Virus record (IMG/VR): IMGVR_UViG_3300031861_000001
Span: 1-64,000 of that record
Strand: one strand, 5' to 3'
Source of the DNA: a virus
Lineage: Duplodnaviria > Caudoviricetes
DNA: 64,000 nt
In this document: piece after piece, positions 1-57,608 of the stretch
Numbering within the stretch: position 1 is the stretch's first letter
Layout: every line of letters starts with the position of its first letter
Made by a program: the position numbers and the translations under genes
Notes under the pieces: model-generated
The model's database searches: none
What the model was told of the DNA's origin: nothing
The model's input: the letters and a program-made list of their open reading frames with translations, nothing else

Positions 1-155
1 TATCCTACCTCATCATCATCTGATCCGAATGCTTGAAATACATCTTTGATTCCTATTGATTGTAAAAATGGGAATTTAGGATCTCTGTAGAACGAATATC
101 GAAACTGTTGCTCTAAAGACACCCTTAATTCTGCTTTTGATTGATCGTTAATCAT
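1..155 (-). CDS. hypothetical protein, runs off the window edge (partial)
   Basis: Not in ORF track. ATG at 155 overlaps TGA of the upstream gene (ATGA); the frame MINDQSKAELRVSLEQQFRYSFYRDPKFPFL... stays open to position 1. Confidence 0.55.
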   Translation of the reverse strand, partial: MINDQSKAELRVSLEQQFRYSFYRDPKFPFLQSIGIKDVFQAFGSDDDEVG

Positions 156-349
156 TTCTTCTTAGCTTTTTTAATTAAACCTTTTGCTTTCTTCTTTGCT
201 TTATGAACCTTCTTTTCTGCTTTTTGTTGAATTTCTTTTGTTTCTTTTTCTACACGATGTCGAGCAGCTGAGGCTTCTTCTTTTGCTGATTCCTTAACAC
301 TACCAAAGAGTTCTTTAACATGATGTTTTATTTTATGAATTATAGACAT
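152..349 (-). CDS. small Lys/Glu-rich hypothetical protein
   Basis: 65 aa ORF tightly packed between neighbours; charged and helical, no recognisable family. Confidence 0.6.
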   Translation of the reverse strand: MSIIHKIKHHVKELFGSVKESAKEEASAARHRVEKETKEIQQKAEKKVHKAKKKAKGLIKKAKKK

Positions 350-352
350 AAT

Positions 353-646
353 CTATACCTTTCGTTTCATTGTGTTTATTATATTTTTATCAGAATATCC
401 GGATATATGGTTTTTATCTGCTTCAAGTAATATTTCTTTTACATCCTTAAATTCAAAGAAAACTCCATGACCCGCTGATTTTAATGGTTCCAACCCGCCA
501 TATTTGTAAGTGCCCCAGAGAGAAAACTCACCTGTCTTTCCTGGAACAATTGTAGTACTATAACCGTTATTATTCATTTCGACAGCCAGAGCCTCTGCCT
601 GTGATTTATATCCTCAAGATGAACAATATTTAATTGTAAAACTCAT
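353..646 (-). CDS. SelW/Rdx-family selenoprotein (CxxU), 97 aa with in-frame UGA
   Basis: ATG at 646 overlaps the TGA of the upstream gene (ATGA) and is in frame with the 74 aa ORF at 577. It reads MSFTIKYCSS-UGA-GYKSQAEALAVEMNNNGYSTTIVPGKTGEFSL, matching the Rdx pattern I-x-Y-C-x-x-U-G-Y...A..LA.E...G..G.F. The UGA is at 616-614. Confidence 0.85.
582..602 (-). promoter_or_regulatory. candidate bacterial SECIS hairpin
   Basis: ACAGGCAGA-GGC-UCUGGCUGU gives 8 pairs with one G.G mismatch and a G-initial apical loop. It begins after exactly 11 nt (GGAUAUAAAUC) downstream of the UGA. Confidence 0.7.
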
Positions 647-897
647 TCTTTGTCCTTTATTTTTGTATCAGGATAAGGCCAAGAATGCTTTAAAGTTTCA
701 AGCTTAGCCAAATATTCTTCCTGTCTCCTATGGTCCTTTAACGAATAGCATCGCAAACTTAGTTCATCCAGATCATCGTTTGTTAAGTAAGGTAGAAAAG
801 AATTAACCGCGCCTAGTATATTTTTATGAGAATACAACATCTCTTTTCCATCAACATACACTCTAATTGTTGCCTTATTGTCTTCCTTCAGTCCCAC
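643..897 (-). CDS. hypothetical protein
   Basis: 84 aa ORF, translationally coupled (ATGA) to the Rdx gene. Confidence 0.6.
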   Translation of the reverse strand: MGLKEDNKATIRVYVDGKEMLYSHKNILGAVNSFLPYLTNDDLDELSLRCYSLKDHRRQEEYLAKLETLKHSWPYPDTKIKDKE

Positions 898-1058
898 AAG
901 TCTTTATCCCAATCCTTACGAAAGTGTTCGTGGTGCTCTTTTTTAGATTTTCCAATTCCAGCACGTTTACGTTTTTCTTCATCCGAAATTGGTACGTACC
1001 TTCTATTATTACCAAAACCTATAACATCATAATCTCTAGGATTGTAAAATTTTGACAT
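888..1058 (-). CDS. small hypothetical protein (56 aa)
   Basis: The likely start is MSKFYNPRDY at 1058, just after the stop of the 163 aa gene. The track's upstream extension overlaps that gene. Confidence 0.55.
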   Translation of the reverse strand: MSKFYNPRDYDVIGFGNNRRYVPISDEEKRKRAGIGKSKKEHHEHFRKDWDKDLWD

Positions 1059-1059
1059 A

Positions 1060-1551
1060 TTATTCCTCTGGATTTTTTTGTGGTATGTTAGATTCATAGT
1101 TCCATTCATAGAAACTGACATCTCCGCCGATTGTGTGTCCGCCCGCATGCTCTCCGTTTTCTTTTCCACCATCGCGATAGTGTTCAGTTATATCTTCACT
1201 CAAAACCATAAACTTTCCTTCTTCTGATTTTCCCTTTACGCCTTCTAATGCATTGTGAACTTCCCTTGAATACACAATCTTATAAGATATTGGTACTCGT
1301 TCTTTATCAATAACCCACACATAAATCCAATTTGGTTCATCAATATAATGCTTGAGATATAAGCCTTGTTTTGGATTCTCAAACTTTGGATATCCCAAGA
1401 TCGCTGTATATGTCTTATATGTTGATGTTACTAATACAAGGAGAAGTGGAATGAACCAAATTAAAAATTTAGGACTCTTTCTCCCCTCTATCAACAGCCA
1501 TAAGCATATGACTGACAGCAGTACCAATCCGAAAATCAACAGTTCGACCAT
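1060..1551 (-). CDS. membrane protein with two N-terminal TM segments, third gene of the Mot/Exb-like module
   Basis: Hydrophobic MVELLIFGLVLLSVICLWLLI and FLIWFIPLLLVLVTSTY followed by a soluble domain; overlaps the stop of the MotB-like gene. Confidence 0.7.
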   Translation of the reverse strand: MVELLIFGLVLLSVICLWLLIEGRKSPKFLIWFIPLLLVLVTSTYKTYTAILGYPKFENPKQGLYLKHYIDEPNWIYVWVIDKERVPISYKIVYSREVHNALEGVKGKSEEGKFMVLSEDITEHYRDGGKENGEHAGGHTIGGDVSFYEWNYESNIPQKNPEE

Positions 1552-2285
1552 TATCGTCTTTCTTCATGTGCTGGATTATTGTCTGAACTAGTTTCATATG
1601 CGGCAGCACCAGAACCTTGATAATTTCCTGTGGCCATCAAAGGAGTTACAAAATCCTTTTTTTCAAATGTAAAAGGTGTAAGAACTGTTCCGTCCTTATC
1701 TAGTCTAAACCTTACAAAAGTTTCTTCCTGTCCTTTACCAAAGAATTTCTTTTCTCCGACCCACATAATTGTATAAGGATTAACTTTATGTAATTCTATT
1801 TTTACTGTTAGTTCTTTTGATTTCTTTTTACGTACGGTGGAGCCCATTTCAATTCTGTTGTCTATGTTTGAATAGTCCCTTTCAGAATAATAATGAGCAT
1901 TGATAATATATTCTCCTGCAATGATTCCTCTAATAGTTATAACTTCCCTATTGATTCTTACAGTTGATACAGTACCATCTGCATTGACTACTGTATCATT
2001 AGCTGAACCCAAATCATCTTTATCCAGATGCATGAAGTTTGCGACAGTTCTTCTAAAACTACAGTTCGCACCTAAAGGATCTTCTATATAAAGATCAATG
2101 TCACCTTTTGCTTCTTTATCCCATTCCATTATAACAACGAATTCTGCATTTCTATCAAAATCTTTTTTCTTTGCCTCTGGTTTAATTAGAAGAAATGCTA
2201 TTATGAAAAGAAACGCAAATCCAACAAGGATGTTGAAAAGCAGATCTGTAAAACCAATGGTGGACTTATATTTTTCATTATTCAT
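1551..2285 (-). CDS. MotB/ExbD-like single-pass protein with YfaP/DUF2135-like periplasmic domain
   Basis: TM helix GFTDLLFNILVGFAFLFIIAFLL carries the MotB/ExbD-type Asp. It is followed by EW...DIDLYIEDP.G...HLDKDDLG...NREVITIRG...GEYIINAHYY, a YfaP-like pattern. Confidence 0.7.
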   Translation of the reverse strand: MNNEKYKSTIGFTDLLFNILVGFAFLFIIAFLLIKPEAKKKDFDRNAEFVVIMEWDKEAKGDIDLYIEDPLGANCSFRRTVANFMHLDKDDLGSANDTVVNADGTVSTVRINREVITIRGIIAGEYIINAHYYSERDYSNIDNRIEMGSTVRKKKSKELTVKIELHKVNPYTIMWVGEKKFFGKGQEETFVRFRLDKDGTVLTPFTFEKKDFVTPLMATGNYQGSGAAAYETSSDNNPAHEERR

Positions 2286-2736
2286 TTAGCGCCACTTCAA
2301 GATTCACTAACTGAACTTTAATGATAAGTGAACATATCAATCCAACCAGCGTTGTCCAAAGTGCTGTACTCATTCCTAGTGCCATGTCTGATAATGCTTG
2401 TTGTAATGTTACTGCATTCGATACATCCACATTTGCGAATGCAGTTCCTAACATTACTAGAAAACCGGTAACTGTTCCTACCATTCCAAGTGCAAGACAT
2501 GATTCTGATATGAACCATCCTACATCACTTTTTTGATCATAATCTTGTTGTATTCCAACCTTATAAGTTTTTGTGCCTATCCAAATCGAAGTGCAACCAA
2601 AAATAAACAGTATAAGATAACTCAGTTTAGTTATATCAGACTCATATAAACTCATATGAATATCGAAATACAGACTAACACTAATTCCTAGTATGATCAA
2701 ACAAAATATTAACCACCATTTCAATACAGACTTCAT
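2278..2736 (-). CDS. MotA/TolQ/ExbB proton-channel family protein
   Basis: About four TM segments; LGMVGTVTGF...GMSTALWTTLVGL signature; strong GGAGAGG RBS upstream. Confidence 0.85.
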   Translation of the reverse strand: MKSVLKWWLIFCLIILGISVSLYFDIHMSLYESDITKLSYLILFIFGCTSIWIGTKTYKVGIQQDYDQKSDVGWFISESCLALGMVGTVTGFLVMLGTAFANVDVSNAVTLQQALSDMALGMSTALWTTLVGLICSLIIKVQLVNLEVALNE

Positions 2737-2754
2737 CAGTTACCCTCTCCTAAT

Positions 2755-2880
2755 TTAAAATACTTCATGTGCTTTTAAAATCGCACCTATAATTCCTATA
2801 ACAAAAGGAATAGATGCAAAATAATATCCATAGGAAACTACGAATATAACAGTTTCTTCAATGTAATCAAATACAGCCAT
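2755..2880 (-). CDS. 41 aa single-pass membrane protein
   Basis: Not in track. MAVFDYIEETVIFVVSYGYYFASIPFVIGIIGAILKAHEVF fills the gap between the lipoprotein and motA-like genes. Confidence 0.55.
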   Translation of the reverse strand: MAVFDYIEETVIFVVSYGYYFASIPFVIGIIGAILKAHEVF

Positions 2881-3172
2881 GAGTCTCGTATCTTACTTGC
2901 GTCCAAAGTTTTCCCTCTTCATCATATTTCATTCGTATCATGTTCCCATGAGAATCACAATAATGAGAATAGATTGAATTGTTGATCTCAAAAAATCCTG
3001 CTGATTGAAGCCCTACTAATTTTTCTCTAGGTAAATACTGCGAAGCAACTACCCATTTAGGCGGATAAGCTTCTTCAGTTGATGGGGCGCAAGAAGTAAG
3101 TAACAAAATGGTAACAATTGTTAATATTATTTGCATTAAATTAAGAATAACTAAATTTAAAATTGTTTTCAT
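2867..3172 (-). CDS. predicted lipoprotein
   Basis: Hydrophobic N-terminus ending in the lipobox LLLTS-C. Confidence 0.65.
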   Translation of the reverse strand: MKTILNLVILNLMQIILTIVTILLLTSCAPSTEEAYPPKWVVASQYLPREKLVGLQSAGFFEINNSIYSHYCDSHGNMIRMKYDEEGKLWTQVRYETHGCI

Positions 3173-3261
3173 TCTTCTCTACATTCTAATAATTGTCTTT
3201 TATTATAATATATTTTGTCTTGGATGTCAAGTATTTTTTTGTTGAATATATCTCTATCCAT
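3169..3261 (-). CDS. possible small ORF (30 aa from ATG; frame open to 3333)
   Basis: MDRDIFNKKILDIQDKIYYNKRQLLECREE ends with an ATGA overlap onto the lipoprotein start. Confidence 0.35.
   Translation of the reverse strand: MDRDIFNKKILDIQDKIYYNKRQLLECREE
3202..3230 (-). promoter_or_regulatory. consensus sigma70 (early) promoter
   Basis: TTGACA-17 nt-TATAAT, upstream of the lipoprotein/motAB-like/selenoprotein genes. Confidence 0.85.
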
Positions 3262-3321
3262 ATTTAGGATGTCTATTATTTGAGCTATTATTGCTTGATG
3301 TCTATCTTTCCCTGCTGGGTT

Positions 3322-3350
3322 TCGGGTGATTAATCATACTAATCACCCGA
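3322..3350. other. perfect 11 bp inverted repeat (hairpin)
   Basis: TCGGGTGATTA-atcatac-TAATCACCCGA, just downstream of the B12 radical SAM stop; no U-tract. Confidence 0.7.
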
Positions 3351-3361
3351 TCCGGGTTGCA

Positions 3362-5164
3362 TCATACAAAAAATCTCTCTGCTCTCCTACCCCACCACAT
3401 ACATTCGCGAGCCCACTTTTCTAAGTTACCATTATAGACTTTGTAAGGGTCTTTCATCTTATTGTATTGATCATTAACTATTGAATATTCAAAACCATAT
3501 TCATCTTTTAAGTAGTCACCTACTTCTCCATAGAAACGGTCTTTTTCTTTAGCAATATGTATAGCGGTTGCTTCTTCATATTCCCAATATATATTAGAAG
3601 CTCCTGGAACTTTACGTCCCCATGGAATCTCTCTATCAAATACCTTCTTTAATAGTCTCATTGTTACTGTATACTCTCTATACAATAATGATCTGTCGTT
3701 GTTTGTAAACCATTCAAATAATCCATTATAAAACTCTCTCATTGATATGTTATGATTATTCTTTAATTCTAAAGCTAATATTCTAAGCCATCCTAAGAAA
3801 TGTAGAGATATCATAAACCACTTCCATCCTGTTGCTTCTAAGTAATCATCAAACGACATATTATTAGAGCCGACTACTACATCATTAACATCTTCTAATA
3901 ATTGGTCTGGTGGATGCTCATGATGGAAAAATGCGGGTGATGTTTGTTTTATTTGTACACCATATTTTTTAAGATATTCGGGATCTCCAAATGGAGTATT
4001 AGGAAGAGCAACCATTACATATATTCCAATATAATTATGATAATTTACATCGTCAATCAATCTATAGAGCCCCTCCTTAAAACTATCTAATGATTCCTCC
4101 GGTAGGCCGAGAATAGTTTCTATATAAGCGGGCATGCCCCTCCATTTTAAATTTGCTAATACCTCTCTTAGATTAGTATTTTCATTAGTTCTTTCGATCG
4201 CTTTTAATGTAAGTGAATTCATCGACTGTAGAGCGATCGTGACACTTTTATTAAGACCAACCTTCCATAAGTCTTCTGCTATATCAAATAAGTATGGTTT
4301 TTTATGTTTAGCCCACGTTATATTAAGTGCATTAGGATAACCAGCTGTTTTAAGTTTATCTATAAGTAAATCAGATATAATCTTATGTTCCTTATACATG
4401 CCGAAATTGTTATCGATAAGGTGAAGATACTCTATCTTTTTATCTGATATCCAATCAATCTCTTTTACTAACTTGCTATAATCTTGTTTAAATATTTTAG
4501 TCCAATGCCTATCACCCACTTCGCAGAATGTACATGTATATGGACAACCGCGTTCTAATTCTACTAAACTTTCCCATGCATATGTGTGATTTTTAATTGC
4601 TATAAGATCATCGAACATTCCATTAAGATATGGACTAGGCATTGAAGAGATATCTTTTATTCTACTATCTAACGGTGTTGTAAAGAAAGGAGTCGTAATT
4701 CCTTTAACAGGTTTTAAATCTTCCTTCCGATGTAATGCTTTCAATACATTCTTAAATACTATCTCGCCTTCATAATGTACTATAACATCAATAAAAGGCC
4801 TGTCTTCTAAAAATTTATCACACCGACCATATTTGGGTATACCTAGTCCGCCATATATGATTACACATTTAGGATTTATTCGTCTTACTTTAGCACACAG
4901 CTTATCACTTACATGAGTATTCCATACAAAATATGAAACACCTATAATATCACATTCTGCTAATTGTTGGGCAGTCTTATCTATATCGAATTCACCATCA
5001 AGCACATAAATCCAATCATGAACATCGAAAGAATAATTATTTGTAATCTCTGTATCAGTCTCACAATAACTCCAGATACAGCCCGTAGAATAAGGCAACT
5101 TAATCTGATTAGAAAATATATGTGATAACTCGACGAAAGCAATACGTTTCTTATTAGAAGTCAT
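3362..5164 (-). CDS. cobalamin-binding radical SAM enzyme (class B methylase-like)
   Basis: N-terminal B12-binding domain (DIIGVSYFVWN...IIYGG) and the motif ERGCPYTCTFC. Confidence 0.9.
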   Translation of the reverse strand: MTSNKKRIAFVELSHIFSNQIKLPYSTGCIWSYCETDTEITNNYSFDVHDWIYVLDGEFDIDKTAQQLAECDIIGVSYFVWNTHVSDKLCAKVRRINPKCVIIYGGLGIPKYGRCDKFLEDRPFIDVIVHYEGEIVFKNVLKALHRKEDLKPVKGITTPFFTTPLDSRIKDISSMPSPYLNGMFDDLIAIKNHTYAWESLVELERGCPYTCTFCEVGDRHWTKIFKQDYSKLVKEIDWISDKKIEYLHLIDNNFGMYKEHKIISDLLIDKLKTAGYPNALNITWAKHKKPYLFDIAEDLWKVGLNKSVTIALQSMNSLTLKAIERTNENTNLREVLANLKWRGMPAYIETILGLPEESLDSFKEGLYRLIDDVNYHNYIGIYVMVALPNTPFGDPEYLKKYGVQIKQTSPAFFHHEHPPDQLLEDVNDVVVGSNNMSFDDYLEATGWKWFMISLHFLGWLRILALELKNNHNISMREFYNGLFEWFTNNDRSLLYREYTVTMRLLKKVFDREIPWGRKVPGASNIYWEYEEATAIHIAKEKDRFYGEVGDYLKDEYGFEYSIVNDQYNKMKDPYKVYNGNLEKWARECMWWGRRAERFFV

Positions 5165-56279: not shown

Positions 56280-57608
56280 TTACATCAAGTTTGTAACTAG
56301 ACATCGTCTGTAATAAACGTTTGTGTTATATGTGAGTGATCCATCACTGGATGCAGCGGTTCCTGTTGAGAAAGGATTCGATACCATTCCGTATCGTGTT
56401 TTGAATCCAATCTTTGGCTGGAAGGAATTCTCACCAACCGCACGTACCATTTGTAGTGGAACGTATGGGCAATAGAAAAGTCCTGCGTCATAAGCTGACG
56501 AACCTTTATATCCAATCACAAACCAATTTGTATCTTGGATTGTAGCATATGGATCAACATATACTTTGTAACGACCATTAAGAGTACCAGCAAAAGTTGA
56601 TTGTGTATCATCAACATTCAACGATCCACCTGGAACGGCAGATTGATAATCAAGTACACCAGCCATTTGCAATGCGGAAGCAACATCCGAAGAAGTCATA
56701 AGGATATTACCTTTTCCTCTACGTGTGTCGTGCCCGATAGCATTAGCTTCGCGCTCAATCTGGAACATTAGTCCCTTAAATTTTTCAACCATCCAACGAC
56801 CGTTTGAATCAACATCCATATCGAATGTCCCGGCTGTGGCTACGTTGTTCTGGGCACCAGTTTTGGCGTTACCATAAATTGTTCGGATAACTTCGCGGTT
56901 AATTTCCGATAGAATCTCTGAACTTAAAATATTAGAAAGTTCAGTTTCAGCATCAAGACCATGAATTGCTTTTAAGTCTTGAGCCAATTCCATTGTATAT
57001 TCGCCTTTAAGTGCGCGTGTTTTCGCTGTAACAGTTACCTTATCGATTGAAAAGGCCATTTCAGCAAAAGCATTTGCAGCACTATCGCCCATTGCTTCAC
57101 CTAAAGTCGTAGTCATTCCACGACCTGGGAGATATGCAAGTGAACTAGTTGAGGCAGCCGCAGGGTTACCATTGGAAGTGTGTGCTGATGTTGCAGCAGC
57201 GTTTCCACCAGTAATACCGGAATCAGCTTCACTGAAAAGTGCTTCTGAACCAGTTTGACTAGCATAACGGGACTTCATGGCGAAAATTAAGCCAGTAGGA
57301 CCTGTCATAGGTTGAACACCGCAAACATCGTATGCGATTAAGAGAGGCATACTTCTGCGAACCAAGGAAATAAGTACTGGGTCATAACCTTTGATATTTC
57401 CAGCAGTAGTACCCATACCGGCACCAACTGCGTTCGTAGGAGAACTCTCAAATAAAAGCGAAGACCCGCCTTCTTCCTGAATTGACTTCTCTTCATTCTC
57501 TAACAGAACTGCTGTAACAGCTTTCCTGTAAGAATCTTGAATTGCGGGAAGATCAGGATGGTCGAGTACAGGACCCCACTTCTCTTGTAAATTTTCTGAC
57601 AAAAACAT
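56280..57608 (-). CDS. gp23: major capsid protein gp23
   Basis: LQEKWGPVL...DPVLISLVRR...QPMTGPTGLIFA...FQPKIGFKTRYG. Confidence 0.99.
   Translation of the reverse strand: MFLSENLQEKWGPVLDHPDLPAIQDSYRKAVTAVLLENEEKSIQEEGGSSLLFESSPTNAVGAGMGTTAGNIKGYDPVLISLVRRSMPLLIAYDVCGVQPMTGPTGLIFAMKSRYASQTGSEALFSEADSGITGGNAAATSAHTSNGNPAAASTSSLAYLPGRGMTTTLGEAMGDSAANAFAEMAFSIDKVTVTAKTRALKGEYTMELAQDLKAIHGLDAETELSNILSSEILSEINREVIRTIYGNAKTGAQNNVATAGTFDMDVDSNGRWMVEKFKGLMFQIEREANAIGHDTRRGKGNILMTSSDVASALQMAGVLDYQSAVPGGSLNVDDTQSTFAGTLNGRYKVYVDPYATIQDTNWFVIGYKGSSAYDAGLFYCPYVPLQMVRAVGENSFQPKIGFKTRYGMVSNPFSTGTAASSDGSLTYNTNVYYRRCLVTNLM

Follow-up and report, generated by a model that had tools for sequence, protein, structure and literature searches.

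Can a virus of bacteria encode a selenoprotein and leave the decoding of its selenocysteine (Sec) codon to the infected cell? Sec decoding has been described for cells and for a few animal viruses. The question is raised here by a small gene on the minus strand at positions 646 to 353 of the window, by which we mean the whole stretch of 64,000 nucleotides (nt) analyzed, namely the first 64 kb of the 75,970-bp IMG/VR virus record IMGVR_UViG_3300031861_000001 (CheckV completeness ~42%). An initial annotation had proposed that this gene carries an in-frame UGA read as Sec with the help of a hairpin located just behind it, yielding a phage-encoded protein of the SelW/Rdx type that relies on the Sec machinery of the host, and the in-silico checks described below support this proposal. 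We consider it probable, at about 0.8, that this is a genuine selenoprotein gene in which Sec would be inserted at UGA 616-614 through host SelB acting on the downstream hairpin.

A 97-codon gene behind a 74-residue annotation

Translated from ATG 646-644, the minus-strand frame opens with MSFTIKYCSS, meets TGA at 616-614, continues as GYKSQAEALAVEM... and reaches its stop at TAG 355-353. The resulting SelW/Rdx-like coding sequence (356-646, minus strand) comprises 97 codons including the proposed Sec codon (614-616), which stands for residue 11 in the motif C8-S-S-U11, and the peptide following the TGA starts with GYKSQAEALAVEMNNNGY... Under translation table 11, only a tail of 74 amino acids (aa) is obtained from ATG 577 (353-577, minus strand) and the first 23 residues are discarded by gene callers. 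Translation thus bears out the suggestion that this 74-aa open reading frame (ORF) is the C-terminal three quarters of the longer gene and no separate gene, and that the gene as a whole is hidden from standard callers.

The start codon is likewise placed where it had been proposed. ATG 646-644 and the TGA stop (645-643) of an upstream 84-aa gene with no assigned function (643-897, minus strand) form an ATGA overlap, in which the upstream TGA is an ordinary stop; the overlap suggests translational coupling of the two genes, and the identical junction is present in two relatives (L013 and L017, where L numbers denote loci). A Shine-Dalgarno (SD)-like AAGGA, read from the sequence at 653-657 on the minus strand, lies 6 nt 5′ of ATG 646, and purine-rich or SD-like motifs occur at the equivalent distance from the upstream ATG in all homologues. 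No SD-like motif was found in the sequence before ATG 577, which is located just 3′ of the hairpin.

Authenticity of the codon

The sequence of the gene recurs unchanged in nine other assemblies, drawn from different samples, and marine runs of 13 studies contain the stretch. Two metatranscriptomic libraries gave contigs that span 472-808 and 608-1047 without differences, virome contigs also cover the codon, and no variant base at 614-616 was seen in any run covering it. Given that these independent assemblies and contigs are identical, an assembly error is ruled out, and where TGT or TGC would have spoken against the proposal, TGA is what is given by the other assemblies and by the contigs from RNA libraries. 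The latter are compatible with transcription, although they cannot prove transcription, strand or level.

Homologues and conservation of the codon

Most relatives of the gene were found by DNA-level scans of IMG/VR and JGI metagenomes, which gave 23 further loci, and the homologue set comprises 20 distinct coding sequences on fragments of T4-like phages, with 32-85% identity to the protein of the window. A word-based protein search returned two proteins only, and an exhaustive HMMER search of 1.84 billion representatives returned four true relatives. Two candidate proteins, P0005 and P0006, were rejected as relatives, being Big_2-like repeats that match "GKT.QFS..GTY." Among isolate phages (50,697 GenBank phage records), neither megablast with positions 1-3000 nor tblastn with the protein gave a match, and the family is so far known from uncultured sequence only. 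Public protein sets hold the family in truncated or wrong-code forms alone, P0001, P0003, and P0008 beginning at an internal Met. Two further entries, P0002 (L003:536-781) and P0004 (L014:236-463), were called under a code in which TGA means Trp and carry W at the Sec position, the call of P0002 running beyond the real TGA stop; this W is a database artefact that hides a selenoprotein.

Across the 20 distinct homologues the critical codon is TGA in 18 and CGA (Arg) in two, while TGT, TGC, and TGG do not occur, so that the column holds neither the Trp that would have spoken against a Sec codon nor a Cys. Codons 5′ of the TGA keep their amino acids and vary synonymously (Ile as ATA, ATT or ATC, Tyr as TAT or TAC, Cys as TGT or TGC), the ratio of non-synonymous to synonymous substitution rates (dN/dS) over the whole gene ranges from 0.14 to 0.70, and no frameshifts were seen. 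Judged from these sequences, the gene is evidently under purifying selection on both sides of the TGA. Initiation at 577 alone is not favored either, the internal Met codon being replaced by Ile or Leu in most homologues. Taken together, the conservation of the codon, the dN/dS values, the unconserved internal Met and the positions of the SD-like motifs make both a pseudogene and an independent 74-aa gene unlikely.

The CGA alleles occur in five assemblies belonging to two lineages (L015 and L016, codon at L015:226-228, and L037-L039), with the downstream hairpin (loop GGC) intact. Apart from the Sec codon, the proteins of L015 and of L040, which has TGA, do not differ; in L037-L039 the CGA stands on a second background. 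Either recurrent TGA-to-CGA transitions or recombination must lie behind this pattern, which suggests that a full-length product free of Sec is tolerated. A separate case is L002, which at 2995-3120 retains the C-terminal half alone (GAAYNIKSAGHGVFFNFKDIE...), joined to another start immediately after a 125-aa gene unrelated to it, and which seems to hold what is left of the selenoprotein gene.

The SECIS-like hairpin

Bacterial Sec insertion depends on a selenocysteine insertion sequence (SECIS) lying within the ORF, and a SECIS-like hairpin is found here in the minimum free energy (MFE) fold at 579-604 on the minus strand. Its core stem, ACAGGCAGA-GGC-UCUGGCUGU (602-582), begins exactly 11 nt past the TGA and its apical loop GGC (593-591) opens with G, precisely as the initial annotation had described; RNAfold adds a lower helix that includes the UGA. 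In the folds of the homologues, all hairpins start 11-14 nt after the UGA. The published bacterial SECIS (bSECIS) model calls for a loop of 3-9 nt, a stem of 4-16 bp, G in the first two loop positions, a UGA-to-loop distance of 16-37 nt and an MFE of ≤ −7.5 kcal/mol (PMC13188914). A 3-nt loop (GGC), a stem of 10 bp, a UGA-to-loop distance of 20 nt and an MFE of −10.4 kcal/mol place the hairpin of the window within every one of these limits, and 20 of the 21 family sequences pass as well. Since the same criteria are passed by 6-7% of 51-nt windows taken at random from this genome, a lone hairpin would be weak evidence, and it is the recurrence in 20 of 21 diverged relatives that argues against a chance occurrence. 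The loops GGC, GUC, GUU, AGUU, and AGUUG correspond to the G[G/U] of the model, the MFE fold of L025 showing GACAA instead.

Selection on the RNA structure is further indicated by comparison with controls. Each of the 21 sequences folds with a lower MFE than synonymous recodings that encode the same peptide (mean z −2.1). A 5-bp helix shared by the whole family (599-595 with 585-581) is paired in 93% of cases, compared with 18-68% in slid controls; AU/GC double changes occur at two of its pairs, and the observed value was reached by one of 500 shuffles. Covariation was scored on this lower helix alone because the register of the upper stem differs among subclades, in which different sequences form equivalent stems, and a single-column consensus for the entire hairpin was rejected on the same ground. 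Between the window and L003, 22 nt over the hairpin are identical even though the synonymous divergence (dS) of the gene is 0.78. The expectation that a true SECIS would be conserved and co-varying is matched by the family, as is the published model.

Protein family and fold

With U scored as C, the Pfam Rdx profile PF10262 matches residues 4-44 of the protein at 24.6 bits against a cut-off of 22.6, a match which includes the region upstream of the called start at 577 and needs residues 4-23; the 74-aa ORF alone gave no match in the library of hidden Markov models (HMMs). Rdx matches were obtained in 20 of 20 family members (best E-value 2.1e-11), the match of the window's protein ending at position 47 of the 74 in the Pfam model. 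Assignment to the Rdx family, as initially claimed, is thus upheld for PF10262, while it fails for TIGR02174, whose score is given below with the other points of doubt; the sequence scores indicate that the protein is related to the subfamilies TIGR02174 and NF041051 without being a member of either by NCBI thresholds.

A profile search with the family matched it along its full length to MIEN1 and to six SelW-related PDB entries from bacteria. An AlphaFold2 (AF2) model built from the family alignment (predicted local distance difference test score, pLDDT, 84; predicted template modeling score, pTM, 0.72) shows the order b1-(CxxU)-a1-b2-b3-b4-a2, and C8-S-S-U11 falls between E2-7 and H14-26, in the b1-a1 loop, where its counterpart in the alignment is the CxxC found in MIEN1 and in the Vibrio cholerae SelW-related protein; solved Rdx proteins have Cys at this position. 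The best Foldseek matches of the model (2ojl, 2fa8, 3dex, 2oka, 2obk, and 2p0g) are all bacterial SelW-related proteins, with probability 1.00 and target-normalized TM scores of 0.66-0.74, though E-values are only ~1e-3. The product is accordingly modeled with a thioredoxin-like Rdx fold and, judged from its family, would be a small thiol/selenol oxidoreductase with the active-site motif C8-S-S-U11.

The canonical C-terminal FSK...G.FP segment is missing in the window, with LKSAGHGVFFEF in its place, whereas the basal phage members L027-L034 retain FLSKEDMGRFP; the profile alignment to the PDB entries still spans the replaced region. Two further peculiarities of the window's protein are five extra residues, WGTYK, inserted in the b3-b4 turn, and a 16-residue C-terminal tail (residues 82-97; 356-400 of the window, minus strand) that has pLDDT <50 and is absent from the close relative L013.

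The source phage and its genetic code

The minus strand carries every gene of the window, and the G+C content of the record is ~33%. PHROG matches in the record include the major head protein gp23, the portal gp20, a gp46-type SbcC, a helicase and long tail fibers, and the capsid protein shares ~65% identity with its counterparts in T4-like cyanophages and in Melnitz, a phage of OM43. These matches, together with the capsid identity, identify the record by its gene content as a T4-like myovirus and its host as bacterial. Standard-code ORFs cover 97% of the record, and the 101 ORFs end in TAA (50), TGA (32), and TAG (19). With 32 of the 101 ORFs ending in it, TGA terminates translation here in the ordinary way, which excludes a code in which TGA means Trp; recoded phages are recognized by the avoidance of TGA as a stop together with many in-frame TGAs, a pattern opposite to these counts. 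A plausible read-through architecture is confined to this one gene in the record. The Sec genes or additional UGA genes that might have accompanied it elsewhere in the record did not come to light: no tRNA-Sec and no selB were detected, and a search for other read-through genes gave two matches only, both trivial (upstream stretches of 6 and 10 codons overlapping real genes).

Cellular relatives

A scan of bacterial genomes based on the protein alignment found nothing, the back-translated pattern having required Cys at the Sec position. With a 47-nt degenerate DNA pattern for [IV]KYCxxUxY...A..L carrying TGA at U, species-representative bacterial genomes gave at least 120 sites (L041-L160), of which 119 of the 120 listed are SelW-like genes that match the HMM of the phage family. 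This leaves at least 119 SelW-like genes of bacteria in which a TGA stands in frame, mostly from Planctomycetota, Myxococcota, Pseudomonadota, Chloroflexota, and Desulfobacterota, and most of them are probably truncated or missed by standard callers. A quick maximum-likelihood tree places all 21 phage-type sequences in one group, whose long branch has a Shimodaira-Hasegawa-like approximate likelihood ratio test (SH-aLRT) support of 99.8, implying long persistence in phages. The window belongs to the most derived subclade, in which the canonical FSK..GRFP segment has been lost. Among the matches listed, the nearest two cellular sequences come from genomes that encode SelB above the cut-off. Reading a donor or host from this tree was rejected, given that the bacterial sample was pattern-selected and taken among the matches listed, and that the sister grouping with a metagenome-assembled genome (MAG) of Pseudomonadota has a weak support of 82.

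Alternative readings of the UGA codon

If the UGA is decoded, the amino acid might be one other than Sec, inserted by near-cognate read-through (Trp, Cys or Arg), by an opal suppressor tRNA encoded by the phage or after a change of code late in infection, as known from stop-codon-recoded phages. Public databases did call P0002 and P0004 with Trp at this codon, Arg alleles exist, and a genome of which ~42% is in hand leaves room for a suppressor tRNA. What makes such decoding improbable is that TGA serves as the stop even of the gene overlapping this start, that no tRNA was found in 76 kb, that TGG is present in no homologue, and that a SECIS-type hairpin is kept at the canonical distance from a UGA which falls exactly at the Sec/Cys position of CxxU, in a family whose oceanic members mostly contain Sec (PMC2398784). 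Simple termination at the UGA, which would leave a 10-residue leader and a 74-aa protein from ATG 577 and turn the hairpin into a regulatory or re-initiation element, is less probable still. Such a product would, according to the model, lack strand b1 and the Rdx active site, and it lacks the residues on which the Rdx match depends; this reading coincides with the table 11 annotation, and an ATG indeed follows the hairpin in the window, L003, L013, and L017, yet most family members have Ile or Leu instead of that Met, the first 10 codons are kept as protein with synonymous variation, and no SD motif precedes 577.

Least probable of all, in our judgment, is a decaying pseudogene, that is, a bacterial SelW-like gene that acquired a nonsense mutation or became unusable in a Sec-less host. 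The Arg alleles could suggest a relaxed constraint at the codon and L002, with its C-terminal half fused to another start, would fit decay, but the TGA is kept in 18 distinct sequences down to 32% identity with constrained dN/dS on both sides and an unbroken frame, compensatory changes maintain the hairpin, and the long, well-supported phage branch speaks for long persistence. Insertion of Sec remains the reading that we prefer, and several observations weigh against it. The stem of the window's hairpin contains a central G.G mismatch, which the initial annotation had passed over and which is G.U in L013, L014, and L017; taken alone, this hairpin reaches z −1.9 (p 0.04) relative to synonymous recodings and −1.65 relative to dinucleotide shuffles, and Rfam gave no family at the gathering score across the window. 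The scores for TIGR02174 (CXXU_selWTH; 19.2 bits, cut-off 34.2) and NF041051 (SelTWH_Campy; 29.5 bits, cut-off 88) are below threshold. No tRNA, tRNA-Sec or selB was found in the 76-kb record, an absence that weighs little given that the record is ~42% complete, and the presence of SelA, SelB, SelC, and SelD in the host is our assumption. The contigs from RNA libraries may derive from contaminating DNA. Finally, the CGA alleles combine an intact hairpin with Arg, where Cys would be expected if redox function alone mattered.

Proposed mechanism

According to the Sec reading, a ribosome would start at ATG 646, coupled to the upstream gene by the ATGA overlap, and the hairpin with its GGC loop, 11 nt past UGA 616-614, would recruit the SelB-GTP-Sec-tRNASec complex of the infected cell. 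Sec would be inserted and the ribosome would read on to TAG 355-353, so that for this protein the phage would depend on SelA, SelB, SelC, and SelD of its host and on a supply of selenium. The protein would act probably as a small redox protein early in infection, and its gene is a member of a phage-specific SelW-like clade found at varied places in marine T4-like genomes. The structure of the gene, its family and fold, the conservation of UGA and hairpin, purifying selection and the use of the standard code are established by the analysis; Sec insertion, host dependence, expression timing and the biochemical role are what we infer.

Gene neighborhood and mobility

A sigma-70 consensus, TTGACA-17-TATAAT, is located at 3202-3230 on the minus strand with 12 of 12 positions matching and is a candidate early promoter on the strength of this consensus match. 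Behind it follows a gapless run of ~10 small genes, encoding a lipoprotein, MotA/ExbB-like and MotB/ExbD-like proteins and small ORFs, and including the selenoprotein gene, and no terminator-like sites were found in 1-3500. This uninterrupted run behind a sigma-70 consensus, with no terminator-like site, suggests that the selenoprotein gene may be expressed early in infection.

In the relatives, the neighbors are T4-like phage genes that differ from one relative to another. The selenoprotein gene lies just 3′ of the major capsid and gp24-like genes in L022 (955-2286) and L023 (963-2294) and within other islands in L018 and L024, while in the window it is found ~55 kb from the capsid region (56280-57608), in the early-looking operon. 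Such differing neighbors indicate that the gene acts as a mobile cassette among the hypervariable islands of T4-like phages. One member of the phage clade is carried by L133 (JAKUSK010000076.1, 2,240 bp), a contig of a Nitrososphaerales archaeon MAG from Station ALOHA, whose neighboring gene is 72% identical to the phage gene at 69328..68702 of this record; L133 is most likely a phage fragment mis-binned into an archaeal MAG of similar G+C.

These features can be drawn together into a broader proposal, to which we give even odds, namely that the phage sequences form a mobile, auxiliary SelW-like clade decoded by host SelB and tying part of the infection programme to the supply of selenium and to the Sec trait of the host, with the CGA alleles as Sec-free escape variants. 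If so, the escape variants might serve, for example, in Sec-less hosts or in selenium-poor water, and would point to a role without a strict need for the selenol.

Comparison with known systems

A recent review of the prokaryotic selenoproteome, published in 2026, never mentions phages or viruses (PMC13188914), and few or no viral sequences were reported for most families examined, selenoprotein families included (PMC9402790). No published selenoprotein encoded by a virus of bacteria was found in the searchable literature, in agreement with the view that phage selenoproteins have gone unreported. SelW-like proteins make up the sea's most abundant family of selenoproteins, with 427 Sec and 56 Cys forms in the Global Ocean Sampling (GOS) data (PMC2398784), and such counts in marine metagenomes may be partly viral. 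Should the Sec reading be true, part of the programme of some abundant marine phages would hinge on SelA/B/C/D as a host trait and on a trace element, and the Sec trait of hosts could serve as a new marker of host range. The family is at the same time invisible or mis-recorded in protein databases because callers truncate its genes or place Trp at the Sec site.

The closest known system is that of the bacterial SelW-like selenoproteins (PF10262, TIGR02174, NF041051), with which the phage family shares the fold, the position of CxxU and a SECIS within the ORF after the UGA, as well as the N-terminal signature [IV]KYCxxUxY...A..L common to at least 119 bacterial genomes and, in its basal members, the C-terminal FSK..GRFP motif. 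It differs from them in being carried on T4-like phage genomes as a long-branch clade of its own, in having Arg at the Sec position in some alleles and in staying below the NCBIfam cut-offs, and the subclade of the window has KSAGHGVFF in place of SK..GRFP, along with the insertion and the disordered C-terminal tail.

As for the RNA element, the minimal upper stem-loop of Escherichia coli fdhF, as reportedly delimited by Liu et al. in 1998, has 17 nt and stands 11 nt after the UGA. The phage hairpin resembles this type in its stem beginning 11 nt past the UGA and its small loop with G followed by G/U, and it resembles bacterial SECIS elements in general, the UGA-to-loop distance being 17-22 nt in the phage family and the MFE ≤ −7.5 kcal/mol in 20 of 21 sequences. 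Unlike in fdhF, SelB binding is here a prediction, and there is no sequence similarity between the two elements; a bulged U was not identified in the hairpin of the window, while in several relatives a single base is bulged on the 3′ side.

Among viruses, those of eukaryotes offer known cases, molluscum contagiosum virus and fowlpox virus each encoding a selenoprotein homologous to glutathione peroxidase. Like these selenoproteins, the phage protein would be virus-encoded and wholly dependent on the Sec machinery of the host, whereas the animal viruses use a SECIS in the 3′ untranslated region for a glutathione peroxidase and the phage gene uses a bacterial SECIS within the ORF for an Rdx protein. 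Stop-codon-recoded phages, in which Borges et al. are said to have described in 2022 the recoding of late genes with TAG as Gln or TGA as Trp, likewise carry in-frame stops that need decoding, but the present case concerns one codon in one gene, is site-specific, and occurs in a genome where TGA is otherwise a normal stop. The SelW-like family and the bacterial SECIS within the ORF are thus known, and what is new is the phage setting, the distinct clade and the derived C-terminal half of its proteins.

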